DNA of 64,000 bases. It comes from an uncultured Gammaproteobacteria bacterium (GTDB lineage: Bacteria > Patescibacteriota > Patescibacteriia > Magasanikbacterales > GCA-002688135). The first letter of the stretch is position 1, and each line of letters begins with the position of its first letter. The notes beneath the pieces were generated by a model that saw only the letters and a list, made by a program, of their open reading frames with translations, searched no databases and was not told the DNA's origin. Positions 113 through 61,108 of this stretch are shown here, in pieces. A program made the position numbers and the translations under genes. The stretch spans positions 5,944-69,943 of the forward strand of contig CAZHVT010000001.1 in the NCBI GenBank assembly GCA_964536205.1, in the 5' to 3' direction.

Positions 113-685
113 TTATCCCGTCAGAAAATCGAGTTCAAACATATCCTCATGTGAAACAGTAGCACGATCAAAACACAATTTTCGAGCGATGCATACTGAT
201 TCTTCTTTTTCATGAGTTCTCATCTGTGAAGCCCAAATGTTGAGCACTTTCTCAAACTTTGCATCAATCACACGAGCTTCTTCTTTTAGCTCTTCACTCG
301 ACATGCTCATGTTCTCGAAATAGTGACGCTTGATTGGATGAAAAAGGAAAAGACTATGAGGAGCGCTTGATCGAGTATCTGCTGCCATCAGCACTGTGAT
401 TGCTGCAGATGATGCCTCACCAGCAACATGAATCTCGAGTTGATCCGACCAGTTGAGTGTATGGCGAACTAGATCATGAAACGCAATCGCTACATCAAGT
501 GATCCACCAGAGCTCGAGAGAATTAATGTGACACTTTTTTCTGCATCTTCTTTGAATAGATCCCCAATTTCACGCACCACGCGCTCCATTGTTTCAGAAT
601 CAATCACTCCAATCCACAGCACGTGTCTTGCGAAACGATCAGCGGCATTCATTACCAATACCACGCTCTTTTTGAACTGCCACAC
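113..685 (-). CDS. ClpP/crotonase-fold serine protease-like protein (Clp protease proteolytic subunit family)
   Basis: Motifs ILSSSGGSLDVAIAFHDL and IHVAGEASSAAITVLMAAD resemble the ClpP GG(S/D)V...GxA(A)SMG active-site region; true start may be an internal Met. Confidence 0.55.
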   Translation of the reverse strand: MWQFKKSVVLVMNAADRFARHVLWIGVIDSETMERVVREIGDLFKEDAEKSVTLILSSSGGSLDVAIAFHDLVRHTLNWSDQLEIHVAGEASSAAITVLMAADTRSSAPHSLFLFHPIKRHYFENMSMSSEELKEEARVIDAKFEKVLNIWASQMRTHEKEESVCIARKLCFDRATVSHEDMFELDFLTG

Positions 686-2094: not shown

Positions 2095-3846
2095 ATGTCC
2101 ATCAACAAACAAATCATCAAAGAATTAACCATGGCTGATCTCCATGACTTTCGTGATGTCGATAAAATTAAACACAGCGTATTGCGCGCGGCAAAAGGGA
2201 AGCAGCCGACTAAATCGGAATTACTCAAAACCTATCGCGAGATGCTGGATTCTGGGGAAGTAGAGAAATCTGCGGTGATTGAACGATTGCTGCAACGTGG
2301 TCATATTCGATCTCTCTCTGGAGTTTCCGTGATTACTGTTTTGACGAAACCTTATGCATGTCCTGGAAAGTGCGTGTATTGCCCAACTGAATCTATCATG
2401 CCAAAAAGTTATCTTTCTAATGAGCCAGCGGCACAGCGAGCGTTGCGCAATAAGTTCGACCCGTGGCTGCAGATTTCAAATCGGATTTGTATGTTGGAGG
2501 GAAATGGTCATGCGGTTGATAAAGTTGAGATGATTGTGAAGGGTGGAACCTGGAATGCGTATCGATATGATTATCAGTTGTGGTTTATTCGACGTTGTTA
2601 TGAGGCGTGTAATCGATATGGAACTTCTGATGCAAATCTTCCTGATGAGCGCGCGGATTTTAAGATGAAGGAGATTGATCCTGAAACAACTTTTACGAAT
2701 GTGAATTCTTTGGAGGTGATTGATGCGCCGAATGCGACCACTTCAGATGAGATTCAGAAATCTATTGAAATAGAAAAACAAAAATTGGCCGAAGCGATTA
2801 AAATTAATGAGATGGCGAAATATCGGATTATTGGATTAACTTTGGAGACGCGACCGGATTGGATTCGCCCAGAAGAAGTTGCGCGCATGCGTGAGATGGG
2901 ATGTACGCGCGTTGAGGTTGGCCTACAACACACTGATGATGAGGTTTTAAAATTAATAAAACGTGGGCACACCGTCCAGCAATTTAAGGATGGGATTTCT
3001 TTGTTGCGTGATGCGGGATTCAAAGTTGATTTGCATACGATGCCTCATTTGCCTGGTGCGACGCCGGAATCTGATATTAAGATGTATGATATTTTATTTG
3101 ATGATCCTGGATTGCGGCCGGATATGATTAAAATTTATCCGTGTACAGTTGTCCCACTTTCTGAATTGCAAGATTGGTATGATGAAGGAAAATTTACACC
3201 ATATCCAATTGAAGATTTGTATCGCGTTTTGAAAGAAGCGAAAAAACGTGTGCCTAAATATTGTCGGATTTCGCGTTTGATCCGAGATATTCCTTCTGAT
3301 TCTATTACAGCTGGGAACAAAGTCACAAACTTAAGAGAAATGCTTCAGAAAGATATGGAGGCTGATGGAGAGACTTGTGTGTGTTTGCGGTGTCGTGAAT
3401 ATGGTCGATCTTCAAAAAAATACGATGATTTACTTAAAGAAGAGCCGCAACTCTTTATAGAAAAATTTATTGCAGGGAATGGGACGGAGTATTTTTTGTC
3501 TTATGAGGATCCGCAGCGGAGATGTGTGTTTGCTTTCTTGCGATTGCGATTGCCATCATCGCAGGATGAGAAGATATTAGAATTGATGCCGGAAATTAAA
3601 GATTGTGCTTTTGTGAGAGAGTTGCATACATATGGTCATCTCGTAAAAATCGATGCGGAAGCTTCAGATTCAGATGTGCAACACAAGGGCTTCGGAAAGA
3701 AATTAATGAAAGAAGCAGAAAACATCGCCACAGAAAAAGGATTTAAAACGATGGCCGTCATCTCCGGTGTCGGCGTCCGCCAATACTACGAAAAACTCGG
3801 TTACCATCCCGGCGAAACATATATGCTGAAGAACTTGTCATCCTGA
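2095..3846 (+). CDS. elp3: Elp3-like radical SAM / GNAT acetyltransferase (tRNA uridine-34 modification enzyme homolog)
   Basis: 583 aa. KPYACPGKCVYCP radical-SAM Cys cluster, conserved Elp3 core (GHTVQQFKDGISLLRDAGFKVDLHTMPHLPGAT, MIKIYPCTVV) and C-terminal GNAT-like segment (HKGFGKKLMKEAENIA); ends at a TGA stop. Confidence 0.85.
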   Translation: MSINKQIIKELTMADLHDFRDVDKIKHSVLRAAKGKQPTKSELLKTYREMLDSGEVEKSAVIERLLQRGHIRSLSGVSVITVLTKPYACPGKCVYCPTESIMPKSYLSNEPAAQRALRNKFDPWLQISNRICMLEGNGHAVDKVEMIVKGGTWNAYRYDYQLWFIRRCYEACNRYGTSDANLPDERADFKMKEIDPETTFTNVNSLEVIDAPNATTSDEIQKSIEIEKQKLAEAIKINEMAKYRIIGLTLETRPDWIRPEEVARMREMGCTRVEVGLQHTDDEVLKLIKRGHTVQQFKDGISLLRDAGFKVDLHTMPHLPGATPESDIKMYDILFDDPGLRPDMIKIYPCTVVPLSELQDWYDEGKFTPYPIEDLYRVLKEAKKRVPKYCRISRLIRDIPSDSITAGNKVTNLREMLQKDMEADGETCVCLRCREYGRSSKKYDDLLKEEPQLFIEKFIAGNGTEYFLSYEDPQRRCVFAFLRLRLPSSQDEKILELMPEIKDCAFVRELHTYGHLVKIDAEASDSDVQHKGFGKKLMKEAENIATEKGFKTMAVISGVGVRQYYEKLGYHPGETYMLKNLSS

Positions 3847-3891
3847 ATGCTTTAGTCGAAGAATCTCCTCAAATTTTCTGCAATTAAAAAA

Positions 3892-3914
3892 ATCCCGTTG
3901 TCCGGGATTTTTTG
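3892..3914. terminator. Bidirectional Rho-independent terminator (atcccgTTGTCcgggat + T6)
   Basis: Perfect 6-bp stem; A-run on one side and T-run on the other, between convergent genes. Confidence 0.6.
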
Positions 3915-3915
3915 A

Positions 3916-4494
3916 TCAGCCTATGCGAATCATGAGCGCGACACTTCCGTTTCCGATAATACCATTTACGATTGGATGCACCAGCGCCATTGCACTTGTG
4001 TCATTCCAGTTCAGAATAATTCCCACAATCACCAAGCAATATGCCAAAACAGCTGTATCCCACGGCGGCGTTTTTTCTCTAAGCGTGCCATTCCATAACC
4101 CTACCACAGTAGGATAAAACGAAATGAGATACACAATTTGTAATAAGATATTTGCGAGTACGGCATTACCTGTTGTCTGCCACAAAATACCCACTGCAAG
4201 TGAAATGCAAAGCGAGAACTTTTCAATTTTTCCCACTCTCGCAAATTTTCCCTTTGCCAGAGCGTAGAAAAAAATCGTACTTAATCCGATAGTTGCAGTC
4301 AGTGTGATTGACCATTCAAACAAATTTCCGTCGACTACTGTGAAGTATGTCGCCGTGTTGATCAATCCAATCACTGTCCAAATCAGCCATGTCGCTGGAT
4401 TGGGAATAGATACCCCTTGCACGATCTGACGAAAATACATCACAATAACAAGGATCAAAACCACACTTGCCAGGGTTGAAAATACCTCTGCCAT
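3916..4494 (-). CDS. polytopic membrane protein, function unknown
   Basis: 192 aa, about 6 hydrophobic helices. Confidence 0.5.
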   Translation of the reverse strand: MAEVFSTLASVVLILVIVMYFRQIVQGVSIPNPATWLIWTVIGLINTATYFTVVDGNLFEWSITLTATIGLSTIFFYALAKGKFARVGKIEKFSLCISLAVGILWQTTGNAVLANILLQIVYLISFYPTVVGLWNGTLREKTPPWDTAVLAYCLVIVGIILNWNDTSAMALVHPIVNGIIGNGSVALMIRIG

Positions 4495-13822: not shown

Positions 13823-13905
13823 TTATTTCCACATCACCTTGTCTTTATCCACATCTATGCACACCTTTGTGGATAACATGTGGAAGTTATGCACATATCC
13901 ACAGA
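13823..13905. promoter_or_regulatory. Cluster of DnaA-box motifs (perfect TTATCCACA at 13845-13853, GTTATCCACA on the opposite strand at 13868-13877, TATCCACA at 13897-13904, plus weaker TTTCCACA/TGTGGAAG)
   Basis: Matches to the DnaA box consensus TTATCCACA read directly. Confidence 0.5.
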
Positions 13906-14759
13906 TTGTGTGCATAACCATGTGTATTGTTTGTGATTACACACAGTTTTAAATTCAATGTCCAACTTCTCTGCAACTAATTTAAGTAAAAAAGCTACGT
14001 TGACAAAACCGGTTTTTCATGTTATACTGTTTATGTAACTGAGATGACCGTTTGCACACCACTTACGCATCCGCGTTACCCATCATGTACAGTTAGCACC
14101 ACCACTACCAACTGTATATACCACTACAACCACTTAGTTCATTCATGGGCCTGTCGCACCTGCGATAGACCTACAATCAAATCTTCCTCGTTCACTCGTT
14201 GGGAGAATTGGGTTTAACCTCTTTCTCCATCACTCTGCTCTGCTTTATGCTTACGTATATACCAAACAGGACACTGTGTGGCATACTCATAAGCTTGGGA
14301 ACCTCTTTTAGATGGATCTCCCGTGGCTTGGGTAGGATGATGAGGTAAGTCACTCGGAAAATCCAGGAGAGTTATGTTGCAGATGCGTATAGCATGAGAT
14401 GTCTCATGTCGTACTATACGCGTCTGCAGGTACTCGTCGATTATCCGAAGGGGGTACTGCAGGCTTTAAGCAACACTGTAAGGCTGTCGCAGACCCCTCT
14501 TTTTTTTGCTTAAAACCAGAAATCTCCGATTTCGTAAGTTTTAAGTATTCCCGAGGCCTACCACAATTTTGAAAATATTACGCGTATCGCATACCACTTA
14601 GTCAGAAGAATGCACAGATGAACCTAGCCGTGTGGAACAAAGCAAGAGGCGAGCTGAGGATTTTTACCAAGACTAATACGCCTCCATCGTATTCCCTTCG
14701 AAATTTCTGATTGCCTTAATTTTCTTGGACGCATCCGAAGCCTATCAAGCAGATTTTTA

Positions 14760-31836: not shown

Positions 31837-31920
31837 TTATTTGTTGAATTTGAGTTTACTCTGCTTTTTCCTCGTTTTGTGAGCTCAATGTTCTTTTTTT
31901 CTCATTCCTGTACATGATTT

Positions 31921-31951
31921 GTGGATATTCTGTGGATAGCGTGGATAAGTG
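31921..31951. promoter_or_regulatory. Three tandem DnaA-box-like motifs TGTGGATAT, TGTGGATAG, GTGGATAAG
   Basis: Direct reading; in the AT-rich region between tRNA-Arg and rmuC. Confidence 0.45.
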
Positions 31952-34791: not shown

Positions 34792-35184
34792 ATGAGCATT
34801 AGACTGAAGATTAAAACACCCCGACAGACCTTTGAGCGAATTCTCAATATGGTGAGGGGGCATTCAAAGGTGTATACGAGAAACGAAGAACTTCTCATCA
34901 TTTCATGTGGAGAGTTGAGCGGAGAGATTCTTGCGCGAGTCATCGCTCTTGGTGGGACGGTAAATCAAGAAAAGCCGTCTGATCTGGAAGACCCCGACAA
35001 ATTCATTCACTTTGAAATTGATGGCGTTCAATATGGTGCCGACCGCACACAATTTCTTGAGACTGGGTGTGTGCTTTTGCCCGGGGGGATGGTCATACGT
35101 ATTAATACTTGGAATGAGACTGCGCCTCCGACACCACGAACGTGGTCTGTTGTTCAAATGGCCAAAGCCTACCTTCTTCCATAG
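34792..35184 (+). CDS. hypothetical protein
   Basis: RBS AAGGATGG upstream; 130 aa. Confidence 0.45.
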   Translation: MSIRLKIKTPRQTFERILNMVRGHSKVYTRNEELLIISCGELSGEILARVIALGGTVNQEKPSDLEDPDKFIHFEIDGVQYGADRTQFLETGCVLLPGGMVIRINTWNETAPPTPRTWSVVQMAKAYLLP

Positions 35185-35198
35185 ACTAGGGACATCGC

Positions 35199-35471
35199 AT
35201 GTACGAACATTACCATGCCGTGATGATGCGATCTGTTCGAGATAAGTGGAAGGAATCTACTTTTCTTGACTGGGTTGCACGAAATTTAAATATGGATCGT
35301 TCGACGATTTCACTTCAGACAACAGTTCCAACAGAAGATGCAATAGAATCGGTTATCAGTTATCTCGTGTGGCATCATTGCTCTCTTGATAAAGGCCTGC
35401 TTCCAAAAGATCGACTCCCAACATTAGAAGAAATTCGATCGATTTTTTCTCACACATCTGGTGGTGATTAA
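35199..35471 (+). CDS. hypothetical protein
   Basis: 90-aa ORF followed by hairpin tcccgTACCGcggga + T6 at 35486-35506. Confidence 0.4.
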   Translation: MYEHYHAVMMRSVRDKWKESTFLDWVARNLNMDRSTISLQTTVPTEDAIESVISYLVWHHCSLDKGLLPKDRLPTLEEIRSIFSHTSGGD

Positions 35472-35539: not shown

Positions 35540-36247
35540 TTAACGAAAGAAAAGTTCTTGTGGATGAACATCTACAGTCGGTAGATTCCACCACCAATGC
35601 AGAAGCGGCTTCCATCGCGAAGCGCTGGGTGCGAAATACACGGAGTTATCTTGACTTGGAATCGCAGGAAATGCACCCCCGATGAAGTATGAAAAATGCT
35701 CATCCATTCCGAATTCATCAATCAAAGAAACATCGGTGTTGTTCTTGCGGGCAATGCAGAATATACAGTATAACCACGTGCATGTTACGCTACGTTTGTG
35801 AGTTATCTTTGCCCATAATTTGCAGTTTGTTGAATCGCACTCTTGGCATCGATAATTTTCCGGGATTGGCTTTTCAGGAAGTACCTCTAATTCTGACAAT
35901 CCTTCCCACAATCCTACATGAGCGGAGGTGAGACAGCTCTTACGTACCCACGAATCAGCAATGCACAGTCTTCCGCCCGTGAAGTACATGCATTTCACTG
36001 CGCGCGTGTATCCACGATCTTCACATATTTTCTCATTTTCTTGCGTTGTCGTGCTCTTGGTGACTATCTGCCTTGTTCCCACAATACACTCAGTGCATGC
36101 GTACTGCGTGTATCTCATCGGCAGTGACAATGATGATGGTCGGCCTATATAACCCGAAGCTTCCTTCCACCACAATCTACATTTACGAGCGCCACATGTC
36201 TGACAACTGTGTCCCATCATTGATTCCAATAGTACTATATCTGACAT
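35540..36247 (-). CDS. Cys-rich HPQELFF-tail family protein A (two zinc-ribbon-like modules)
   Basis: CQTCGARKCRLW...CTEC and CQECDSTNCKLW...CIFC; FPAIP; HWWWNLP; ends HPQELFFR. Confidence 0.7.
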   Translation of the reverse strand: MSDIVLLESMMGHSCQTCGARKCRLWWKEASGYIGRPSSLSLPMRYTQYACTECIVGTRQIVTKSTTTQENEKICEDRGYTRAVKCMYFTGGRLCIADSWVRKSCLTSAHVGLWEGLSELEVLPEKPIPENYRCQECDSTNCKLWAKITHKRSVTCTWLYCIFCIARKNNTDVSLIDEFGMDEHFSYFIGGAFPAIPSQDNSVYFAPSASRWKPLLHWWWNLPTVDVHPQELFFR

Positions 36248-36255
36248 GTTCCCCC

Positions 36256-36615
36256 CTATTGAAAGAATTTTTCTTGCGGATGGATTTCTTCAGGAGCGTC
36301 CTTCGTGGGTATGTTCAGATGAGCAAATGCTTTCGCGAGCTGTACTGGCAGCTCCCACTCCTCATCCTCTTCTTCATTCCATGGATGTACGAAGGTAAAC
36401 CTACAACTATGCATTTTTGCAGCAGAATTAAGCTTTTTACCCAAGAGGCACTTATGATCTGCTGTTATGTATGGACAAGTTATTGGTTTTACAACTGTGC
36501 TTGCATCACCGTGCTTCTCAATCCGAACATACAAATTTACAGGTTTCACTAGAATCGCAGCTCCATTAGCCCCAACTCCAACACAATCAACACGAATATC
36601 AAGTGTGTCTTCCAT
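36256..36615 (-). CDS. divergent HPQEKFF-tail family protein (lacks canonical zinc ribbon)
   Basis: Ends ...NIPTKDAPEEIHPQEKFFQ; start placed at MEDTLD directly after the upstream gene stop, with GGAGGAAAC RBS. Confidence 0.55.
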   Translation of the reverse strand: MEDTLDIRVDCVGVGANGAAILVKPVNLYVRIEKHGDASTVVKPITCPYITADHKCLLGKKLNSAAKMHSCRFTFVHPWNEEEDEEWELPVQLAKAFAHLNIPTKDAPEEIHPQEKFFQ

Positions 36616-36623
36616 GTTTCCTC

Positions 36624-37305
36624 CTACTGAAAGAATAGTTCTTGTGGATGGATGCGTTGCGTTTGGAGGTTGCGCCACCATATAACGCGATCCTCTGGCG
36701 CGGCGGTGAATTTCCAGTAGCCTGTGCCTTCTAAGTTTGGCACTGCAGGCATATACGAACCAATCCAATCTGTTTTGACGTTTTCGCGAGCAAAGAGAGG
36801 ATTTACTATTTTCCCCTGATCATCAATTTTATTTACATCGATTCCAACATCTTTTGCCACACATTCTGCACAAAATGTCGATGTGCCGTTTTGCTTTCGC
36901 CACAACTTACAGTCATCTGCAGCACATTCGATACACCAATAATTTTTTGGTGTACCAATTGAGGATGTATCAATGTTCGGTCGTGCTTTTGTTTCCAGTG
37001 CACACCACCATTTCACGGCGTCGTCTGGAGCCCCTGCATATTCCCAGTAAGCCGAATTGTCAGGAAGCGGAATAGCGGCATAATACCACCCAATCCGATC
37101 ATTTTTGAGACCGTCGTCATCTGTAAACACTCCCGAATCATCCATGTCGCTGATGTTTTTTTCTTCTCTTCGAGAAGCACATGGTGCGCACACAAGACCG
37201 TATGACGGTACTGAGAAGTTTCTGAACAATTTACAGTTTGTGGAATTGCACTCGCGACAATAGTAATCAGCAGGAATCTCGTTTGTACTATAATCCAACA
37301 TCATC
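36624..37305 (-). CDS. Cys-rich HPQELFF-tail family protein B/C (two modules)
   Basis: CRECNSTNCKLF...CAPC and CIECAADDCKLW...CAEC; AAIP/PAVP; WWCALE/WWRNLQ; ends IHPQELFFQ; AGGAGG RBS before ATGATG. Confidence 0.7.
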
Positions 37306-37312
37306 GTACCTC

Positions 37313-38029
37313 CTATTGAAAGAATAATTCTTGTGGATGTGATGACTCTACAGGGAGTCGCTTCCACCAATCGAGCATTTCTTTGGTGATTTGTTCATTC
37401 CGCGCAGTGCCATGATTGGACGTCGCTTGTGCAGATGGGATTGCTGGATCCCATCTCGACTCAGGCAGATATGGTTTTATGTATGGAATATCCACCCCTC
37501 TTGGATTTTCTTCAACATCCTCATGAGTCAGCAGCTTCACCTTCATTATGCATGCCTTGCAAGATAATTCAAGATTATCGCTTTCCCAAAGTTGCATTCC
37601 TGTCTGCTCGCACTCCAAGCATCTATACCATTCGGGAACCTCACTCGCTGTGTAATCGAATACATTTTCGTCTGCATCTTCTTCAGGCTCGATGATGCCT
37701 AGTTTCTGTAGCACTGGGATAATCTCTCCGGGTGGTTTCCAGCCGGGGTTTTGTTTTTTCGAATATAGATAGTCAAAAGACAATCGACAATAAACCCCCT
37801 TTCTCTCTGGATCACATGTTTGACTCATGACGAAACATCGTGAACCAGATTCCTCACGACCAAACATGCACTCTTCCACTCTGACACGTACGTCAGATTC
37901 TTTGCTCAGCTTTAGAATCCCTATACGTACACTAACCCCCGCCCCCTCTAAGACAGGCTGGCCTTCGAAATCATAGCCCTCACATACCACTCTGGTTATT
38001 ACATCAATTCTTCCTGTGTCCTTAGTCAT
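37313..38029 (-). CDS. Cys-rich HPQELFF-tail family protein D
   Basis: CLECEQTGMQLW...CKAC; DPAIP; DWWKRLP; ends SHPQELFFQ; own TTGACA-N17-TACATT promoter. Confidence 0.7.
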   Translation of the reverse strand: MTKDTGRIDVITRVVCEGYDFEGQPVLEGAGVSVRIGILKLSKESDVRVRVEECMFGREESGSRCFVMSQTCDPERKGVYCRLSFDYLYSKKQNPGWKPPGEIIPVLQKLGIIEPEEDADENVFDYTASEVPEWYRCLECEQTGMQLWESDNLELSCKACIMKVKLLTHEDVEENPRGVDIPYIKPYLPESRWDPAIPSAQATSNHGTARNEQITKEMLDWWKRLPVESSHPQELFFQ

Positions 38030-38127
38030 AGCCGTCTTCTCCTTTTGTCAAAGAGCCTTTGAAATGTACGTTATTTTTTGTGGTTTGTCAATAGTTTAGA
38101 GAAAATAAAACCCCACTTACCGCGGGG

Positions 38128-38487
38128 CTATCTGAAGAATTTTTCTTGTGGATGCATGGGGTGTGTTGGGATATTCCTCCACCATAAACTCTCTTGCGCG
38201 CTGTTTGGTGTGTCTGTATACCATCCTCCGTCCTTGTTCCGTCTCGGGATTGCGGGGATGAACCAGCCTATGTGATTTGTTCTACCGGGGTGTTCTCGAT
38301 AGTGCGGATCAGAAATTGTTCCATCATCGTCTATTTCTTCGGTTGTTATTTTGACCCTTCTGGCGACGCATGCAACACAGTATGTGGTGTCTATCCTTTC
38401 TGTTTTCCATAACTTGCATTGAGATGCACCACACAAACTACACATGTAAGAGTCGGGTATATTCTGTGAGCTGTAGTCAAACGACAT
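38128..38487 (-). CDS. Cys-rich HPQEKFF-tail family protein E
   Basis: CSLCGASQCKLW...CVAC; IPAIP; LWWRNIP; ends MHPQEKFFR; own TTGACA-N17-TACATT promoter and terminator ccccgcggtaagtgggg. Confidence 0.7.
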   Translation of the reverse strand: MSFDYSSQNIPDSYMCSLCGASQCKLWKTERIDTTYCVACVARRVKITTEEIDDDGTISDPHYREHPGRTNHIGWFIPAIPRRNKDGGWYTDTPNSAQESLWWRNIPTHPMHPQEKFFR

Positions 38488-38619
38488 GCGCACCCCCATC
38501 TGAATAATTCTTTTTGTGGCCGGATCTCTTTTTTGGTTCTTGTTTTAATTGGAGGCCATCTCCCTATATTCCAAAGAGTTATTGTAATGTACGGTGCTGT
38601 GATGTACTTGTCAATAATT

Positions 38620-38644
38620 AAAAACCTCAACCGCAGTTGAGGAA
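38620..38644 (-). terminator. Terminator hairpin cctcaaccGCAGttgagg + T-run on the minus strand
   Basis: Near-identical copy of the hairpin at 35518-35535. Confidence 0.55.
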
Positions 38645-38675
38645 TTTTATTGAATTAATGCTCCTTGTGAATGTT

Positions 38676-39008
38676 TTAGGGTACATTCGGCAAGCTCATC
38701 CACCATTGTGCTTGTGATTTTGTGTGGTGTCCTGTTGCCACATATTTCTCGTGTGAATCTAGTATGGCTGGGTAGTAGGCTCCGAGATTCCAGATTCTAC
38801 ACTCTGTATGATTCAGAGTGCATATACGTGTCCCATCTTCCCCTATATCCCTCAGACTTATCCCGAAATAATTAGTCAGACACACAATGCATTGCAACCC
38901 CTTGAAGCTTGGGTTCTTCCACAACTTACATTGTTTTGCGCCACATACTGCACACAGATAAAAGTCGGGTATCGACCTTGGTGTATCTTCTTGTAATGCG
39001 TCGTCCAT
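38676..39008 (-). CDS. Cys-rich family protein F (tail-less: ends WWMSLPNVP)
   Basis: CAVCGAKQCKLW...CIVC; YYPAIL; WWMSLP; promoter TTGACA-N17-TATTAT and GGGGGG RBS upstream. Confidence 0.65.
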   Translation of the reverse strand: MDDALQEDTPRSIPDFYLCAVCGAKQCKLWKNPSFKGLQCIVCLTNYFGISLRDIGEDGTRICTLNHTECRIWNLGAYYPAILDSHEKYVATGHHTKSQAQWWMSLPNVP

Positions 39009-39075
39009 TTTGACCCCCCGCATGTATTAATAAAAGAACAGCACATAATATCAAATATACTTGAATATGTCAACC

Positions 39076-39959: not shown

Positions 39960-40285
39960 TGCTTTATTTGTGGGGGTATACTAACATTGTGGATTTTGTT
40001 TGGCAAGAGGTTGGGATGCACCGCGACATTTTGAGTATGTGTGGATAAGGGTTGACAGAATCCACAGGTCACGATAGGCTTAAATTCTAGCTATTGTTAG
40101 TGAATTAATATATTTTTAAAAATATATTCACACTTATTTTTTACATTTATCCACACTATCCACAAGTTTTCCACATGGTACACACATATCGTAAACAGTT
40201 GACCCTTTTCAAAGAATATTTTGTGATGTATCATCAGAAGACTTGTACTTTTATCGGGTGTGATACCCCATGACCTCCCACTATT
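39960..40285. promoter_or_regulatory. oriC DnaA-box region upstream of dnaA (TGTGGATTT 39989-39997, TGTGGATAAG 40041-40050, ATCCACA 40071-40077, TTATCCACA 40147-40155, TATCCACA 40157-40164, TTTCCACA 40167-40176) with an AT-rich tract at 40100-40140
   Basis: DnaA-box consensus matches plus the canonical rpmH | dnaA-dnaN synteny and the strand switch at this point. Confidence 0.65.
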
Positions 40286-41683
40286 ATGATGACGAATGAA
40301 TCAATCTGGCAAGCAGTGCTTGCAGAATTGGAGCTAGAGCTCTCTAAAGCGAACTTTACGACGTGGTTTCGTAATACTTCATTATCTTTAATGGAGAATA
40401 ATGAGGTTTCAGTGTATGTCCCTAATAACTTCACCAAATCATGGTTGGAGAAAAAGTATCACACATCTATATTGAAAACCCTTGAACAGGTTCTTGGAGC
40501 TCGTATTCAAAAGGTTGCGTATTGCGTTGAGAAAAATCCACAAAAATCCCAAGCTTCTTTTATCACACAAGGTTTCACCTTCAATCACGATTCTGCAGAC
40601 AATTCACTTACTGTTGGCCCACAGGCTCCTGTGGTACAGCAAAATCCAAATGCGCGCGGCTTACACCCGCGTTATGTTTTTGAAAATTTTATTGTGAGTA
40701 AAAGTAATGAGTTGGCACATGCCGCGGCGCAGGCTGTGGTATCCAACCCCGGTGCTTCTTATAACCCCCTCTTTATATACGGCGGAGTTGGGCTTGGAAA
40801 AACTCATTTAATGCAAGCGATCGGACACTCTGTTTTGCAACAAAATCAAGAGGCGAAAGTTTTGTATGTTTCTTGCGAGACATTTACGAATGATTTCATT
40901 CACGCAGTTCGCAATGGTTTGGCAAAAGAATTTAAAGATCGTTATCGCAATGTTGATGTATTGATTGTTGATGATATTCAATTTATTACTGGAAAAGAGG
41001 GGACGCAGGAAGAGTTTTTTCACACGTTTAATGCGCTTCACCAACAGGATAAGCAGATTATTATTTCATCAGATCGTCCACCAAAAGCAATTCCGGCATT
41101 GGAGCAGCGATTACTTTCTCGTTTTGAATGGGGGATGATTGCTGATATTTCATTTCCAGATGTTGAAACACGTGTGGCTATTTTGGAAGCGCGTTGCTCA
41201 GAGCGTGGTATTAAAGTTCCATCAGATGTATTGCACACTATTGCAAATCACATCCAAAATAATATTCGTGAATTAGAAGGAGCTTTGAATAAAATTATTG
41301 CGACGATTGAAATGCACAAGAGTGAGCCTACGTCTGAAATGGTACAGCAAGTTTTAGGAAGTATTAAAGCATCACGCACCATTCACTCTGTATCACCTAA
41401 GGAATTGATTAGAGTGGTTTCTGAATACTTTGATGTAGGTATTGATGATATGGTTGGAAAAAGCCGTGAGAAACGTATTGCATTCCCACGACAGATTATT
41501 ATGTATTTGTTGCGTAAGGAGATGAAAAACTCATATCCTTCGATTGGAGCGGAGTTGGGTGGACGAGATCATACAACTGCGATTCATGCGTATGAGAAGA
41601 TTCGTAAGGCTGTTGAGGTTGATAATAAACTCAAAGCCGACATACAGTATATTAAAGAACGATTGTATACGCCTGCGGCGTAG
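40286..41683 (+). CDS. dnaA: chromosomal replication initiator DnaA
   Basis: AAA+ Walker A GGVGLGKTHL, sensor motifs, C-terminal DNA-binding helix-turn-helix; 465 aa. Confidence 0.95.
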   Translation: MMTNESIWQAVLAELELELSKANFTTWFRNTSLSLMENNEVSVYVPNNFTKSWLEKKYHTSILKTLEQVLGARIQKVAYCVEKNPQKSQASFITQGFTFNHDSADNSLTVGPQAPVVQQNPNARGLHPRYVFENFIVSKSNELAHAAAQAVVSNPGASYNPLFIYGGVGLGKTHLMQAIGHSVLQQNQEAKVLYVSCETFTNDFIHAVRNGLAKEFKDRYRNVDVLIVDDIQFITGKEGTQEEFFHTFNALHQQDKQIIISSDRPPKAIPALEQRLLSRFEWGMIADISFPDVETRVAILEARCSERGIKVPSDVLHTIANHIQNNIRELEGALNKIIATIEMHKSEPTSEMVQQVLGSIKASRTIHSVSPKELIRVVSEYFDVGIDDMVGKSREKRIAFPRQIIMYLLRKEMKNSYPSIGAELGGRDHTTAIHAYEKIRKAVEVDNKLKADIQYIKERLYTPAA

Positions 41684-42064: not shown

Positions 42065-43189
42065 ATGAAGTTCTCATGCACAAAGGAGAATTTACTCAAA
42101 GCATTAACCTGTACAGGATATGTATCAGGTAAACAGGTGAACTTACCGATATTGCAAAATGTGTTGATATCGATGAAGAATACCGAAACTAAGATTGTGT
42201 CGACTAATTTGGAGATTGCTGTTTCAGCGCAGTTGCGAGCAAAAGTTGAGACTGATGGAGAATTTACAGTTCCAGCTCGAGTATTTTTGGAGTATATGGC
42301 GAATGTTCCAGGTGATCGTGTTGATATTGAATTGCATGAATCTGGATTGGGTGTTCAGATGGGGCATTCAAAAACTGTTTTGAAGGGGATGGAAGCTACG
42401 GAATTTCCGTTGATTCCAGGAATTGAGGGGGATGTAGTATTTGAGTTAGATGCGAAAGTTTTATTGAATGCATTGCATCAGGTTTTGTTTGCTGCATCTA
42501 AGAGTGATGTGCGTCCTGAATTATCTGGAGTTTTATTTCATTGTAATCCACCCGAAGGAAAACAAAGTTTGGTGTTGGCGGCGACAGATAGTTTTCGATT
42601 AGCTGAAAAGAAAATTACGTTTAAGAGTGGGGGAACAGAGGAAAAGCGAGTGATTGTTCCATCTCGTACAGTTTCCGAATTGGTTCGCATTATAAATGTT
42701 TCGACGAAAGAAATTGATAGTGTAACGATGCGTGTTTCTGATCATCAGATTGTGTTTGTGTGTGGTGGTGTGCAAATTACTTCGCGATTGACTGATGGGA
42801 ATTATCCGAACTATGAACATATTATCCCCAAGGAATCGAATGTTGAGATGAGTGCGTTGAAGGATGATGTGGTGAAGCAGGTGAAGGGTGCGAGTTTATT
42901 TACGACAAAGGGAATTGGTGCGGTGCGGATGAAATTTGTGGCAGCAGAAAATAAAATTAATATTACATCGACGAATGCGCAGACGGGTGAGCACGCGGGG
43001 AGTGTTGTTGCTGAAGGGAAGGGTGATGAGGTTGAGATGTATTTGAATCATCGATATATTTTGGATGGGTTGAGTGTGATTGATAATGAGCGAGTGAAAT
43101 TTTCCGCGCAATCTACTGATGCGCCGTTGGTGATGCGTCCGCAGATGGATAAGGACTATCTTTACATGATAATGCCTATTAAGCAGTAA
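42065..43189 (+). CDS. dnaN: DNA polymerase III beta sliding clamp
   Basis: 374 aa, three-domain clamp; synteny with dnaA. Confidence 0.9.
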   Translation: MKFSCTKENLLKALTCTGYVSGKQVNLPILQNVLISMKNTETKIVSTNLEIAVSAQLRAKVETDGEFTVPARVFLEYMANVPGDRVDIELHESGLGVQMGHSKTVLKGMEATEFPLIPGIEGDVVFELDAKVLLNALHQVLFAASKSDVRPELSGVLFHCNPPEGKQSLVLAATDSFRLAEKKITFKSGGTEEKRVIVPSRTVSELVRIINVSTKEIDSVTMRVSDHQIVFVCGGVQITSRLTDGNYPNYEHIIPKESNVEMSALKDDVVKQVKGASLFTTKGIGAVRMKFVAAENKINITSTNAQTGEHAGSVVAEGKGDEVEMYLNHRYILDGLSVIDNERVKFSAQSTDAPLVMRPQMDKDYLYMIMPIKQ

Positions 43190-43666: not shown

Positions 43667-44353
43667 CTATTGGAAGAATTTTTCTTGTGGGTGTTGTTCT
43701 GTCGAGTCGGGGAGTGATTCCCACCATGCGATCATTGAGCCTGTGATGGTGTGTCTGAGTTCAAAATATTCGCGTGTCATGTGGGTTGGTATTGCAGCTC
43801 GAAAAAAACGTTTGCTAAAGCTCAATTCAACTTTTGGTACACGTATTTCGTTTAGATTTTTATGGGGCGTATGTATTTTCAGCACATTGACTTGTATATC
43901 ACTCATACACTTATAACACAGTAACATTCCGAAGTTGTTTATCCATAGCTTACATGTCGTTGCTTCACACTCATCACATTTGTAGTGAAGAGGAATATCA
44001 ATTCCCTCATGGTGTTGTGGAATTTTGTCGTCTAGTACATTTTCCGTTGTTGGTTGTACCGACAAACTTTTCCACCAACTCCAACCTTTTTCAGTTAATG
44101 AGGTGTATGGTGTGTATAGTTGGGCACGTGAATTTTTCGGTACTGCTGGGTGGAATGGTCCGATTTTATCATTATTAGTAGTCAGATCTTCGAAGAAATT
44201 ATCACGAATGCAATTCCAGCATTTTAATGCTACGTCATCCATGTGATCTGTTCGTGTAAACCACAATCTGCAGTTTGTTGCATTACATTTTTTACAGAGG
44301 TACCACGGTGGGCACTCTTTGAGCTTCAGATTGAATACTCCGAATTTTGCCAT
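43667..44353 (-). CDS. Cys-rich HPQEKFF-tail family protein G/H (two modules)
   Basis: CKKCNATNCRLW...CWNC and CDECEATTCKLW...CYKC; HPAVP/AAIP; WSWWKSL/AWWESLP; ends QHPQEKFFQ; AAAAGGAG RBS. Confidence 0.7.
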   Translation of the reverse strand: MAKFGVFNLKLKECPPWYLCKKCNATNCRLWFTRTDHMDDVALKCWNCIRDNFFEDLTTNNDKIGPFHPAVPKNSRAQLYTPYTSLTEKGWSWWKSLSVQPTTENVLDDKIPQHHEGIDIPLHYKCDECEATTCKLWINNFGMLLCYKCMSDIQVNVLKIHTPHKNLNEIRVPKVELSFSKRFFRAAIPTHMTREYFELRHTITGSMIAWWESLPDSTEQHPQEKFFQ

Positions 44354-44461
44354 GCCATCTCCTTTTGTTTGTAATGAACGGTTTTTAGATTAGTGGATTT
44401 TTTGGGTTCTGTCAAGGTGTTGACTTGTTATGAAATAAAAAAACCACCGGAGTGTCGGTGG

Positions 44462-44827
44462 TTAGTGAAAGAACAATTCTTGTGGGTGGAGTTCTGGTGC
44501 TTTTTCTTGTGCGTGCCACCAGGTCATCATTTCTTGTGTGATGTCGTCGATCCACGGTGTGTGTTGTTGCTTGCAATCAGTTCTTTTGCATTTTGTTGGG
44601 ATTGCTGGTTCGAACCAACTCATAGTAATCAACTCTACCCCATGTGCGTTTTTTTCTGTTTCGATTCGTGACTTTTCGTCTAGCTCGTCGTTATGTAAGC
44701 ATGTTCCGCATATGAATTCTGGGTTGATTAAGATACCGGAACTTCGCCATAGCTGTACATAATCATTTCCACATCTTGCGCATATATAATCTTGTCTTTG
44801 TGGACAAAATGTTCTGGTGTGTTTCAT
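44462..44827 (-). CDS. Cys-rich HPQELFF-tail family protein I
   Basis: CARCGNDYVQLW...CGTC; EPAIP; TWWHAQE; ends LHPQELFFH. Confidence 0.7.
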   Translation of the reverse strand: MKHTRTFCPQRQDYICARCGNDYVQLWRSSGILINPEFICGTCLHNDELDEKSRIETEKNAHGVELITMSWFEPAIPTKCKRTDCKQQHTPWIDDITQEMMTWWHAQEKAPELHPQELFFH

Positions 44828-44871
44828 GTGTATCTCCTCAAGATCTAGCTCACTTTATAGCGTGAGAGATT

Positions 44872-45615
44872 TTACTGAAAGAACAATTCTTGTGGGTGAA
44901 TTTCTGGTTCTTCTGGGAGGTTCATCCACCACTCGTTCATGACATAATGCATGGAGAATTGATTTACCATATATGTTGGGTCGACCATGCTGGGTACTGC
45001 GTTTAAATAATTGCCTCGCATAAAGTAGTAATGATCCCTACCTTGTGATGCAGTCTGCATTTTATCTGAATTTATGAGATTGAGACACGCTGTACAGATG
45101 AGTGCTGGTTTTATTTTGTCTGACGATAGGTTTGGTTGTCATAACCTACAGTCAGTTTGTTTGCATTGATTACAGACATAATTTTCTGGCACAGTTCTTC
45201 CATAATAGTCGAACCATGACTCCTTTTTTTTCATGGGCGGTGGTTTTTCGGGGAGGTTGGCCCACCATTCCAACATATCATCAGTGAAGTTACTTGATCG
45301 TTCTGATTGTTTTGTGTCTTGTGCGATAGGGATTGCTGGTATGAATGCACCTTTTACGGGATAGATGAGACCTTTTACGTTTCTAAATTTAGCATCCCGT
45401 CCTGCTATTTCATTATGGGGTAAGCATGTGGTGCACCACAATATTGATCTGTATAGTGTTGCTCTTGACCTTCGCCATAGGCGACAATTTGTTATTCCGC
45501 ACATGTTGCAGACATAACCATCCGGCACTACTTTTTCGAAATAGTTGAGCATGATTTTACCTTTTGGGTTGTGAAAGGACTTATGGATAATAGTGTTTTC
45601 TTGTTGGATTGTCAA
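44872..45615 (-). pseudogene. Two-module Cys-rich family gene (K/J) interrupted by an in-frame TGA exactly at the conserved Trp of the second CxxCx5C(K/R)LW motif
   Basis: 45139..45615 ends ...YVCNQCKQTDCRL-TGA; the same frame continues QPNLSSDKIKPALICTACL...WWMNLPEEPEIHPQELFFQ (44872..45060). Paralogs have W (TGG) at this position. Confidence 0.6.
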
Positions 45616-46463
45616 GGTTTTAGTCGTTTGGTGATGTCTTTGTAAATTGGTGATTCTGGTTGAATGTGTGAAGATGTTGTAGTAAAAATTCCGATTTCGC
45701 GAGAGATTTTGAAGGGGAGTTTTATTTTTTGAAGTGATTTTGATGTGAGTTCGTCTGCTATGTGATGTTGTGGGAGAAGTGTTACTCCAGCGCCAGATTC
45801 TGCCATCTCCAAAAGAAAGTTTGGATTGGTGGACTCGATGAGAATTTTTGGCGCGTAATTATTTTTTTGAAATGTTGTATCGATGTAGGATCTTGTTGTT
45901 GATCCGGCGTCATACAGAATAAAAGGGATTTCATTTTTTGGATTCCACTTTTTTTCAGATACTGGGATGAGTTCTTCTTTGTGTGTTGAAAGTATTTTGA
46001 TATTTTCTGGTGGTTTGTAATTTTGTGGAATAACGCAAATGCAGATGTCGAATAATCCAGCAGCTAGCCATGAGAGAAGATTGCGAGAATTATCAATTTT
46101 CATTTCAAAATGATATTCGTGTGTGTCGAGATTTTTTTTGAGAAAGGGGATGAGTTTGAGTGCTGCGGAATCATAGAGGCCGAGTGAGACAATTTGAGAT
46201 CCTCGAAGATTCGTCAGTTCGCTGGCATTTTGTATTTTATCCCAATTGTCGTTCATTCGTCTGGCGAGCTGGTATACGATTTGGCCTTCTTTGGAGAGCT
46301 GTGGTGTTGGGGTGAGTGATGTGAATAGATTGAGCTGTAGATGCTCTTGAAGGCGCTTGAGTGACTGTGAGATGGCTGGTTGGGATATTTGATGGTGTTG
46401 GGCTGCTTTTGTGAGTGAGCCTTTGTGTACGATTGATATGAATCGTTGTAGTTCGAGGAGCAT
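45612..46463 (-). CDS. LysR-family transcriptional regulator
   Basis: N-terminal HTH LTKAAQHHQISQPAISQSLKRLQEHL and LysR substrate-binding domain; stop overlaps the first paralog start (ATGA). Confidence 0.8.
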   Translation of the reverse strand: MLLELQRFISIVHKGSLTKAAQHHQISQPAISQSLKRLQEHLQLNLFTSLTPTPQLSKEGQIVYQLARRMNDNWDKIQNASELTNLRGSQIVSLGLYDSAALKLIPFLKKNLDTHEYHFEMKIDNSRNLLSWLAAGLFDICICVIPQNYKPPENIKILSTHKEELIPVSEKKWNPKNEIPFILYDAGSTTRSYIDTTFQKNNYAPKILIESTNPNFLLEMAESGAGVTLLPQHHIADELTSKSLQKIKLPFKISREIGIFTTTSSHIQPESPIYKDITKRLKP

Positions 46464-46493: not shown

Positions 46494-46641
46494 TTACAAA
46501 TCTACAAATGCTTTTCTAGCAACAACTTGACCAACTGTCATTGCGAGCATTTTAGCGAAGCAATCTCATCCACAGATTGCTTCGTAAGCTCGCAATGACA
46601 GTCTACCACCAGCGTGCTCGAAGAGAATTTGTAGATTTGTA
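46494..46641. repeat. Nested large palindrome: outer arms ACAAATCTACAAA / TTTGTAGATTTGT; inner 14-bp arms CTGTCATTGCGAGC / GCTCGCAATGACAG; innermost GAAGCAATCT / AGATTGCTTC; loop CATCCACA
   Basis: Read directly in the LysR / inositol-phosphate-synthase divergent intergenic region. Confidence 0.6.
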
Positions 46642-46760
46642 TTCAATTTGTATTATTCGTGGGTGTAGTGTGGATAAGCTGTGTTTATAGTGGATAAGTA
46701 TCATTAATTTGGATTATATATGAGTATGGTATATAGTTCAAGCGTTCTTTACTTATTTAC

Positions 46761-58951: not shown

Positions 58952-60586
58952 TTAGTAGCCGACGGAGGTGATAGGGAGTTCATGGAGTTTTTGGGATATG
59001 AGGTTTTGGAGAGTGAGAGTGATGTGATGCCTTTCTGTTTGTGGTCGATTGAATCGCATGGTGAATGTATATGTTTGTGGTTCGGTTTTGAATGTTGTGT
59101 AGAGAAGGTGGTTTTCGCGGATGATTTTTTGAGCCATGATATCTGGTTGATGTACTCGTTTTTCTGCTTCGTTAAATATCGAGAAATTTCCATCTGTGCT
59201 CCACTCAATAATTTTATATGGCGCGCCACTTTGTGTGGTGATTTTTATTTCAGCGATGGTGTTTCGCACATTCCAATTTGCTGATGCATAAACTTTAAAT
59301 TCTTGCAGTTCATTTTTTATTGCGTCTATGTTTGTTTCGCGAAGTCGTGTGTAATTTGAAAATTCTTGTTCGATGGCATTATTTGTTGGTTCTTTTGCAC
59401 GATCCCAAAAGAGTGCTGGTCTCATGAGTGTGATTGCATGTTCAAAATTTGTGCGATCGTCTTGTTTCCATTTTTGGCTTGCGACAGTTTCCCACAAAAT
59501 TTTTCCGCGCATGATTTGGTATTCTTTAATGTTTGCGAGACGATCGAGAATAGGATTGTATTTTCGATCGATCATGTTTTCGCGATGCAATTCATCAAAT
59601 AATACATCCCACGGCATGAATTTTAGTTTGCCTTCTGCTGGCGAATAATAGATGCGCATGTTGTGTGCCCAATCTTGATGATTTGAGCCAGCAAGGATTG
59701 AGTGTGCGTGCCATGTTGCGAGATTTTCTGTGTCTACAATTTGTTTGAGTTTTCTGTAATAGATTTCGTCGGATGGTTCATTGAGAATTTCTAATAATGT
59801 CTCAAGTTGTTTGTACGATGTGTTTGGATCGCCAGCTTTGATGCTCCAATATCCAGCATTTGAGAAGATCGGTTCGTTCACACCATCTTCACCGAAAATC
59901 ACTGTATCTTCAGGAAGATCATGATTGAAAATAAAATCATCACTCACTTGTTCAAATAATACGTACGGCCCCATCTTTTTTTGATTGAGCGTGAGTGCAA
60001 CGAATTGTGCATCTGGGACGAGCAGGTTCATTGATTTAGCTCGTTCGTTGTTGAGCCATTCCATGACGTACAACCGATCTTCGGGAACGATGAGATTAAA
60101 TACTTTGTGTCCAAGAATTGTTTTATTTTTTTTGAGTTCAATGCGCCATGATTTTTTTGTGTATGCCCAGTGCGAGCTTGTATCTCCGCGCAAGCGTGCG
60201 CGTGCTTTGTATGTTTGTCCTTCAAATTCTACTTCTGCGTCACGCCATACTTTTCCGCGTGTTTGATATGCATCATCAGAATCGATCGTATTGAGCGCGT
60301 CGATATCTGTTGGTTTCATGATGAGGTTTATTGTGGGGAGTTTTTTGTTTTGAAATGCTGTTTTGATCATTGAGGGTGCGTCTTTGATATAGAGCGATGT
60401 ATTTTTTCCTGCTTTTCGCAATCCGTCGGGCAAGCTATTAACAAATGTTGATCCTCGTAGGGCTTGAATATTTCCTGTTGCTACAAATAAAAAAACGCCC
60501 GCGAGTGCGATTCCGGCGATTCCCCAGATAATTTTGTGTCTTTTTTTCATCGGGCACAGGTTAGCAAATGCATGATGTGGAATCAA
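58952..60586 (-). CDS. CotH-like (spore-coat protein H family, atypical kinase fold) protein with N-terminal TM/signal
   Basis: ARARLRGDTSSHWAYTKKSWRIEL matches the CotH signature (RGNSS...KKS(Y/W)(K/R)(I/L)); 544 aa. Confidence 0.65.
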   Translation of the reverse strand: MIPHHAFANLCPMKKRHKIIWGIAGIALAGVFLFVATGNIQALRGSTFVNSLPDGLRKAGKNTSLYIKDAPSMIKTAFQNKKLPTINLIMKPTDIDALNTIDSDDAYQTRGKVWRDAEVEFEGQTYKARARLRGDTSSHWAYTKKSWRIELKKNKTILGHKVFNLIVPEDRLYVMEWLNNERAKSMNLLVPDAQFVALTLNQKKMGPYVLFEQVSDDFIFNHDLPEDTVIFGEDGVNEPIFSNAGYWSIKAGDPNTSYKQLETLLEILNEPSDEIYYRKLKQIVDTENLATWHAHSILAGSNHQDWAHNMRIYYSPAEGKLKFMPWDVLFDELHRENMIDRKYNPILDRLANIKEYQIMRGKILWETVASQKWKQDDRTNFEHAITLMRPALFWDRAKEPTNNAIEQEFSNYTRLRETNIDAIKNELQEFKVYASANWNVRNTIAEIKITTQSGAPYKIIEWSTDGNFSIFNEAEKRVHQPDIMAQKIIRENHLLYTTFKTEPQTYTFTMRFNRPQTERHHITLTLQNLISQKLHELPITSVGY

Positions 60587-60619: not shown

Positions 60620-61108
60620 TTAATTAAAAAATTTTTCTTGCGGATGCGGTGTTGTGTCTACTTCTTCAGCGCTTACTTCAAATGCTTCGGCGAGCGCGAG
60701 AATGGCTTTACCCCATCTGTTTTCTTTCGTAAGCGGTTTGAGGTAGTTTGTGGATTCTCGTTCGCTATTAGCAACCTGTTGTTTCATGAGATTGCTTTGT
60801 CTGACAATTTCATGAATGATGAGCTGGATTGCTTCTTTTTCCGAACCATCACAGTCGCTTGCGAGTTCCTGGCACATGGTGAGATATTCTTGGAAAGAAC
60901 TTTCAAAGTAATTTACGTATGTTTCTGTTGTTGGTTGTGCGTCTTTTTTACCCAAGCCTGCGGCAAATGAGCAGAAGTTCCCTGTAGTTGCATCGAGACT
61001 TTTTGGACTTAGGGGTTTCATTCGTATACCAAAAGGATGTGAGAAACCGCGCAAATCGTACTGTGTCATCACGATTGCTCGGTCGATGTTTGCTGTGAGA
61101 AATGACAC
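60620..61108 (-). CDS. non-Cys-rich protein carrying the same C-terminal tail (…TPHPQEKFFN)
   Basis: GTG start 6 nt after AAAGGAG; N-terminal region unrelated to the zinc-ribbon paralogs; own promoter and terminators. Confidence 0.55.
   Translation of the reverse strand: MSFLTANIDRAIVMTQYDLRGFSHPFGIRMKPLSPKSLDATTGNFCSFAAGLGKKDAQPTTETYVNYFESSFQEYLTMCQELASDCDGSEKEAIQLIIHEIVRQSNLMKQQVANSERESTNYLKPLTKENRWGKAILALAEAFEVSAEEVDTTPHPQEKFFN

Follow-up and report, generated by a model that had tools for sequence, protein, structure and literature searches.

HPQExFFx, a putative C-terminal peptide tag on unrelated small proteins of a Parcubacteria lineage

Why should a helical protein with homologues across Patescibacteria end in the same short peptide as a set of cysteine-rich proteins to which its body bears no real resemblance? 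The question is raised by the gene at positions 60620-61108 of a 64,000-nt stretch of DNA from an uncultured bacterium of the Magasanikbacterales (Patescibacteriota; contig CAZHVT010000001.1 of assembly GCA_964536205.1, positions 5,944 to 69,943), referred to here as the window. The product of this gene ends in the octapeptide HPQEKFFN, variants of which (collectively, the tail) terminate the products of two gene arrays in the same window. We interpret the tail, with what we consider an even chance of being right, as a lineage-specific linear motif read by one shared partner and serving its carriers as a common handle.

Occurrence and conservation of the tail

In a six-frame translation of the window, HPQE occurs nine times, always on the minus strand, and all nine occurrences read HPQE[L/K]FF[Q/R/H/N] and are followed at once by a stop codon. 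The endings, LFFQ (three genes), KFFQ (two), LFFR, KFFR, LFFH and KFFN, are exactly those listed in an earlier, sequence-only reading of the locus. Given the amino-acid composition of the window, HPQE.FF has a probability of 4.6e-9 per position, corresponding to fewer than 0.001 expected occurrences in the approximately 128,000 six-frame codons; chance was therefore ruled out as the origin of the tail, and the random frequency that the sequence-only reading had set against its own proposal is far exceeded. Eight of the tailed genes sit in two arrays (35540-39023 and 43667-45552) that flank yidD, rnpA, dnaA (40286-41683) and dnaN, the ninth being the gene at 60620-61108. No more tails were present in the 18.7 kb of sequence read outside the window (8.7 kb on its left side, 10 kb on its right; hereafter, the flanks).

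We then scanned the degenerate pattern CAYCCNCARGARNNNTTYTTYNNNTAR over 596 Gb of species-representative genomes. The scan returned 75 loci, approximately the number estimated from the information content of the pattern, and the only matches that formed in-frame ends of real open reading frames (ORFs) belonged to one Parcubacteria metagenome-assembled genome, ARS125 (NZCD01). ARS125 holds four tailed proteins, two of them new body types. Two tailed paralogues, ending HPQELFFR and HPQEAFFQ, lie in a locus (L006, 4503-5882) that is syntenic with the window (rpsT, nfo, ORF130, ORF90, the paralogues, yidD and rnpA), while the two new carriers, a 104-aa Cys-free protein ending HPQEKFFK and a 63-aa CxxC...CxxC zinc ribbon ending HPQERFFE, are each encoded on a separate contig. 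Among the matches listed, a metagenome scan yielded ARS125-like contigs only, and a scan of viral contigs yielded only out-of-frame chance matches. The tail sequence was not found in the literature.

The motif built from the resulting thirteen tails (nine from the window and four from ARS125, some of which form orthologous pairs) reads H-P-Q-E-x-F-F-x-COOH, with six of its eight residues invariant. Position 5 is occupied by L, K, A or R, and exactly one residue follows FF in all thirteen tails; this last residue is Q in six tails, R in three, and H, N, K or E in one each, and is thus always polar or charged. By these comparisons, at least five unrelated kinds of small proteins carry the tail in one narrow Parcubacteria lineage, and the tail is portable and strictly C-terminal.

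Comparison of the two syntenic loci reveals a marked difference between the tails and the bodies that bear them. Genes flanking the array are well conserved between the window and ARS125 (rpsT, 98% identity; nfo, 92%; rnpA, 87%; yidD, 86%), whereas the products of 36624-37304 and 37313-38029 are only 46% and 39% identical to their ARS125 orthologues, which end HPQELFFR and HPQEAFFQ, respectively. Both pairs keep HPQExFF despite this divergence. Furthermore, the number of paralogues at the locus differs, with six in the window and two in ARS125. The low identity relative to the flanking genes and the change in copy number indicate that the bodies evolve very fast while the tail is held fixed, and the orthologue pairs thus show a tail that, judged by sequence, is under purifying selection as its bodies diverge. 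Conservation in orthologues from related genomes, on which the sequence-only reading had made its proposal depend, therefore extends to the nearest related genome, ARS125, and no further: the tail is missing from all more distant orthologues.

The nucleotide sequences encoding the tail are less uniform than the peptide. In the nine window genes, His is encoded by CAT (six) or CAC (three), Pro by CCA (seven) or CCG (two), and the second Phe by TTT (seven) or TTC (two), while the codon at position 5 is AAA, TTG, TTA, CTA or CTT. The sequence 3' of the stop codon is unrelated between genes, consisting of an intrinsic terminator or of the ribosome-binding site of the next gene. Synonymous codon variation and unrelated downstream DNA point to conservation at the peptide level, and rule out a shared DNA repeat or cassette end.

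Proteins that carry the tail

The boundaries of the 60620-61108 gene are correct as given: its GTG start at 61108 is preceded by an AAGGAGA ribosome-binding site, and homologues begin M-x-FLTANIDRAIVMTQYDLRGF at the same position, confirming the start. The gene has a promoter-like site of its own and a terminator directly after its stop codon. Its product has 122 database relatives at E ≤0.01 (45-69% identity, ~150 aa), which come from Patescibacteria, including Giovannonibacteria and Woesebacteria; its body thus defines a Patescibacteria-wide family of about 120 members, with FLTANIDRAIVMTQYDLRGF at the N-terminus and without a Pfam model. The tail is absent from every one of the ~120 homologues outside its own 90% identity cluster. 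These homologues end ...LALAEAFEVKLEQVAA, with ...LALAEAFEV and ~7 variable residues, so an already conserved protein acquired the tail within this lineage. Gene neighbourhood is not conserved among the homologues. BLASTP detects no real similarity between the body of the 60620 protein and a Cys-rich paralogue, in agreement with the sequence-only claim that they share only the tail. The AlphaFold model of the protein is helical, with a mean predicted local distance difference test (pLDDT) score of 91 that falls to 51-56 over the final residues from ~151, the tail included, and shows no significant fold match in the PDB.

Proteins of the arrays are composed of one or two copies of a ~105-aa Cys-rich module with the pattern P-x2-Y-x-C-x2-C-x4-C-K-L-W ... 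C-x2-C ... P-A-[IV]-P ... W-W-x2-L-P. Because two-module proteins carry the tail at the protein end only, the tail is not part of the module. The arrays also depart from their earlier description in two respects, since the member at 38676-39023 has no tail and the gene at 36256-36615 encodes a third tailed body type, which lacks the module and is homologous to the N-terminal half of the 37313-38029 product (BLASTP E = 5e-4 over 114 aa).

Searching 1.84 billion proteins with a tail-free profile identified 1085 cluster representatives of the module at E ≤1e-3. The listed relatives typically end WW[RK]xLPT(R/L)P plus a few residues, and among the best 150 of the 1085 the tail is absent outside this lineage. 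The AlphaFold model of the single-module protein 38128-38499 has a mean pLDDT of 86.5, with values of 77 for residues 111-120 and 51 for residues 121-123, and includes a short helix predicted over QEKFF (residues 117-121); the module model has no significant fold match in the PDB or among viral structures. No Pfam, NCBIfam, PHROG or PADLOC family scored above threshold for any carrier, and sub-threshold matches were to zinc ribbons only. As read from their sequences, the carriers have no signal peptide or membrane helix, and the modules are CxxC zinc ribbons. Distant relatives of the module are located in phage-like contexts (8001-8432 of L201, with 2956-3339 of L199 also listed): one lies in a long run of tiny same-strand genes beside DnaT, a DnaG-type zinc ribbon, DnaB and an RNA ligase, which is a phage-like early or replication region, and another on a phage-like contig. 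A tblastn search of phage genomes with a member of the module family returned no match. These analyses expose two large families that are unannotated in the searched libraries, the Cys-rich module (>1000 representatives) and the 60620 family (about 120), both with confident predicted folds that have no counterpart among solved structures.

One of the tailed genes, 44872-45552, has an in-frame TGA at 45139-45141 (minus strand), precisely in place of the conserved Trp in the C(K/R)LW motif, with its downstream half intact up to and including the HPQELFFQ tail. TGA is a normal stop codon elsewhere in the window, terminating 11 of 40 long ORFs, and its presence here could reflect a recent TGG-to-TGA nonsense mutation, read-through or a sequencing error.

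Candidate readers and alternative roles

Taken together, these data lead us to favour, by a modest degree, the view that HPQExFFx-COOH is a peptide tag for a shared reader. The tail would act at the protein level, as a short linear motif that a flexible linker carries at the very end of the chain, and it is modelled with low confidence in both modelled carriers (pLDDT about 51-77). A single shared partner would read the tail together with the free carboxylate one residue after FF. The combination of six invariant residues, a free and helix-favouring position 5, and a fixed distance to the end with a variable polar residue is suggestive of a specific peptide-binding pocket that also reads the carboxylate, in the manner of HbYX-type or carboxylate-clamp recognition. 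Such a handle would couple the fast-evolving and expanded zinc-ribbon set, the variable bodies of which probably recognise different targets, to the same intracellular reader, and with it a second set made up of the recruited 60620 protein, the non-module domain of array 1 and the 104-aa and 63-aa proteins of ARS125. We infer that one reader exists, that it reads the carboxylate at a fixed distance from FF, and that the outcome is recruitment, not destruction or export. The sequence-only reading had likewise proposed a portable C-terminal signal recognised by a dedicated partner; the portability stands, with an invariant tail on unrelated bodies, and the search for a partner protease, chaperone or transporter identified none in the sequence examined.

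As to the nature of the reader, the lack of signal peptides and membrane helices, the zinc ribbons and the presence of relatives in phage-like gene runs favour intracellular docking, and we tentatively propose docking to an intracellular hub as a possible form of the tag. The only hub candidate that can be named, and a weak one whose involvement we regard as doubtful, is the beta sliding clamp, the gene for which (dnaN) is flanked, together with dnaA, by the two arrays. Like the tail, the clamp-binding motif (CBM; Q-phi-x-L-F, consensus QL[S/D]LF) is short and occurs on unrelated proteins, often at a disordered extreme C-terminus. Both place Gln at position 1, leave position 3 free and fill positions 4 and 5 with two aromatic or hydrophobic residues, FF being a variant that binds in experiments. 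The Q-x-x-F-F of the tail fits the important positions 1, 4 and 5 of the CBM, since all thirteen tails present Gln at position 1 and FF at positions 4 and 5, for which the CBM calls for Leu (or Phe/Met) and Phe, respectively. The QLSFF of Bacillus subtilis MutS is a ligand of both clamps, with binding 1.5- to 3-fold weaker than that of QLSLF (preprint 10.64898/2026.05.27.728225). Apart from the tails, no clamp-motif-like C-termini are present among the window proteins. The clamp-contact segment of the delta subunit (holA), read by eye, is ...SAPFMA....

Several observations weigh against this interpretation, and most of them bear on the clamp. Where the CBM prefers an aliphatic residue, at position 2, the tail has an invariant Glu (thirteen of thirteen); alanine at this position weakened clamp binding, and the QEMIVP of MutL, in which position 2 is Glu and the conserved Leu/Phe of positions 4-6 is missing too, showed no measurable clamp binding (10.64898/2026.05.27.728225). 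The clamp motif explains neither the invariant His-Pro before the Gln nor the single extra residue that always trails FF. Moreover, the DnaN of the window aligns normally to solved clamps and has a canonical C-terminal pocket strand, the listed module relatives elsewhere have no clamp motif at their ends, and the tail is confined to one genus whereas the clamp is universal. With regard to a shared reader in general, no obvious partner is encoded in the window, in the flanks or at the ARS125 loci, and the tail is known from two genomes, the thirteen tails being a small sample that includes orthologous pairs. There is also a small possibility that the over-use of preferred codons described below reflects an added constraint at the nucleotide level.

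A more specific version, which we consider rather unlikely, would make the tail a private address code of this lineage of the Candidate Phyla Radiation (CPR; Parcubacteria), with an export or host-delivery machine or a lineage-specific hub as its dedicated reader. This reader would handle a diversifying zinc-ribbon arsenal as well as proteins recruited later by gaining the tag, and the code, if real, would be a bacterial targeting signal of a new type, observed at an early stage of its spread. Much of bacterial cell biology is organised by portable C-terminal peptides (clamp-binding motifs, SSB tips, ssrA tags and cargo-loading peptides, for example), and nearly all of the known examples are ancient and universal. 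The HPQExFFx tail is young and confined to a single genus, and its spread is visible, from an expanded, fast-evolving zinc-ribbon family onto a second domain type, two other small proteins and a Patescibacteria-wide protein with tail-less homologues. It therefore amounts to a natural experiment on the origin of a linear motif and of the protein that reads it, and the tagged proteins define a functional group among "hypothetical" genes that provides a handle on the opaque biology of the CPR.

Among the alternatives to recruitment, we weighed a C-terminal degron for an AAA+ protease (Lon or ClpXP, possibly via an adaptor) that would keep small conflict-related proteins unstable or cleared. The tail is exposed, aromatic-rich and modelled with low confidence, as a degron might be, and its format, a short conserved C-terminal peptide on any body, is that of ssrA; ClpP is encoded in the window (113-652, minus strand), and the carriers evolve fast, like many unstable antitoxin-like proteins. 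Known ClpX C-motifs and PDZ-type readers, however, need non-polar terminal residues, and the last residue of the tail is variable and always polar or charged. Six invariant residues also exceed what a pore-loop degron usually needs, there is no evident reason for the conserved, housekeeping-type 60620 family to gain a degron, and no adaptor gene was found in the sequence examined, making degradation a fairly improbable fate. Short C-terminal peptides that give unrelated proteins a common destination or fate are found in encapsulin cargo peptides and ssrA tags, which can likewise be appended to a conserved protein, as with the 60620 family. Their sequences are unrelated to the tail, encapsulin peptides being Gly/Ser/Leu-rich and ssrA ending in non-polar LAA, and neither a shell protein gene nor a tmRNA gene was seen in the window. 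The HbYX (hydrophobic-tyrosine-any residue) plug of proteasome activators also docks by the extreme C-terminus and combines a hydrophobic residue, an aromatic one and a single variable last residue with its carboxylate read; the tail differs in having Phe rather than Tyr as the penultimate residue in all thirteen cases, four more invariant residues (HPQE), and carriers that are small, diverse proteins instead of ATPase rings. Neither the window nor the flanks showed a 20S proteasome or a related ring.

It is similarly unlikely, in our estimation, that the tail is an export or delivery signal by which an episymbiont would send diversifying small effectors to a dedicated secretion or host-injection machine. 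A constant tag on fast-evolving bodies (39-46% identity between genomes, against 86-98% for the flanking genes), the expansion of paralogues with a change in copy number (six genes against two at the same locus), and the restriction of the tag to this lineage are reminiscent of effector arsenals. Against this, no secretion-system gene was seen beside any tailed gene, the bodies lack a signal peptide and are zinc ribbons of a cytoplasmic type, distant relatives are found in phage-like early-gene regions, and the 60620 family is conserved across Patescibacteria and housekeeping-like. C-terminal secretion signals of known types are either long domains or little conserved. The tail, with eight residues that end the protein and no hydrophobic helix, resembles neither the sortase- or exosortase-type signals (LPXTG, PEP-CTERM, GlyGly-CTERM), in which a motif precedes a membrane helix and a basic tail, nor the C-terminal domain of ~80-100 aa of the type IX secretion system.

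We attach little probability to the tail being a substrate site for an enzyme that processes or modifies C-termini (a carboxypeptidase that would take off the variable last residue, a ligase or another modifying enzyme, by analogy with CAAX boxes or tubulin tails). The fixed register, with one variable residue after FF in all thirteen tails, and the high information content of six invariant residues are compatible with such a site, yet the tail has no invariant modifiable residue (Cys, Ser, Thr, Tyr or Lys), and no candidate enzyme was found nearby in the window, the flanks or the ARS125 loci. This alternative includes the suggestion of the sequence-only reading that each protein ends as if at the Gln of a 3C-type protease site. 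The likeness to LEVLFQ|GP is superficial: its E-x-hydrophobic-F-Q is approximated by ELFFQ in three of the nine window tails and by EAFFQ in one ARS125 tail, but the P1 Gln is not conserved, being the last residue in only six of the thirteen tails, and the termini are set by genomic TAA or TAG stop codons. Furthermore, the only peptidases seen in the window and flanks were ClpP, M23, NlpC/P60 and CHAP, with none of a 3C-like or chymotrypsin-like kind among them; the 3C suggestion was therefore abandoned.

Finally, the conserved element might be a signal in DNA or RNA, with the peptide as a by-product, either as a palindrome or as a DnaA-box-like sequence (CATCCACA) near the origin. The 13-nt palindrome AAGAA-N3-TTCTT (AAGAANNNTTCTT) occurs eight times in the window, against 0.14 expected, in eight of the nine tails (e.g., 37320-37332) and nowhere else. 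The wobble bases inside it are nearly fixed across the thirteen tails (CAA in twelve, GAA in thirteen and TTC for the first Phe in twelve), and the arrays flank dnaA, with DnaA-box clusters near. GAA (Glu) and TTC (Phe) are, however, reverse complements, so that the palindrome follows largely from the peptide when preferred codons are used, and it was not retained as a real signal. TTC makes up 56% of the Phe codons in the same genes, and CCA, which lies outside the palindrome, is also over-used in the tail, as expected from selection for accurate translation of critical residues; we read the codon pattern as probable preferred-codon use at such residues. In the 60620 gene the palindrome is broken (AAGAAAAATTTTT) and the tail peptide is kept, the His, Pro and position-5 codons vary, and without exception the element is in frame and lies 3 nt before a stop codon. 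As only one of the nine tails lies within one mismatch of a DnaA box, mimicry of that box was rejected as well, and a nucleotide-level signal is, on the whole, very improbable.

Gene features and neighbouring observations

The coordinates of the tailed genes, of the tail-less array member and of dnaN are listed in Table 1.

Table 1. Carriers of the tail and associated features in the window.
Feature	Position	Strand	Tail	Remarks
Gene in question, 162 aa, GTG start	60620..61108	-		Helical protein of a Patescibacteria family; lineage extension ...EEVDTTP-HPQEKFFN
HPQEKFFN tail codons	60623..60646	-		CAT CCG CAA GAA AAA TTT TTT AAT, then TAA
Array 1 paralogue	35540..36247	-	35543-35566	Two Cys-rich modules; end HPQELFFR
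Array 1 gene, 119 aa	36256..36615	-	36259-36282	Non-module domain; end HPQEKFFQ
Array 1 paralogue	36624..37304	-	36627-36650	Two Cys-rich modules; end HPQELFFQ
Array 1 gene	37313..38029	-	37316-37339	N-terminal non-module domain and one Cys-rich module; end HPQELFFQ
Single-module paralogue, 123 aa	38128..38499	-	38131-38154	End HPQEKFFR; AlphaFold-modelled
Single-module paralogue without tail	38676..39023	-		End WWMSLPNVP, as in the wider family
Array 2 paralogue	43667..44353	-	43670-43693	Two modules; end HPQEKFFQ
Array 2 single-module paralogue	44462..44827	-	44465-44488	End HPQELFFH
Array 2 two-module paralogue	44872..45552	-	44875-44898	End HPQELFFQ; in-frame TGA
dnaN, beta sliding clamp	42065..43189	+		Between both arrays; candidate reader; C-terminal pocket strand YMIMPIKQ

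Two small genes adjoin array 1, ORF130 (34792-35184) and ORF90 (35199-35471), both on the plus strand and encoding proteins of 130 and 90 aa. Their counterparts in the syntenic ARS125 locus are located at 3749-4141 and 4157-4429 and encode products with 71% and 56% identity to those of the window, respectively; neither has a match in Pfam, NCBIfam, PHROGs or PADLOC, and both may be functionally linked to the tailed proteins. A LysR-type regulator gene (45612-46463, minus strand) has the same orientation as array 2 and stops 60 nt upstream of its first gene; it may control the array or share a transcript with it. The 60620 gene is immediately followed downstream by a gene for a CotH-family kinase (58952-60586). 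The ClpP gene lies at the left edge of the window, and an Elp3-type radical SAM/GNAT enzyme is encoded at 2095-3846.

DnaA-box-like sites (TTATCCACA, with at most one mismatch) number 36 in the window, against 19 expected, with clusters at 13845-13917, 31920-31948, 40040-40175 and 46566-46697. The cluster upstream of dnaA is likely the origin, and another five boxes form a cluster at ~13.3-15.0 kb, a stretch in which no ORF reaches 110 aa. In DnaA itself, the AAA+ segment TQEEFFHTFN (residues ~241-250), which is near-universal in this protein, resembles the PQE(L/K)FF(H) of the tail; as the segment is part of a folded domain, the likeness is probably a coincidence.

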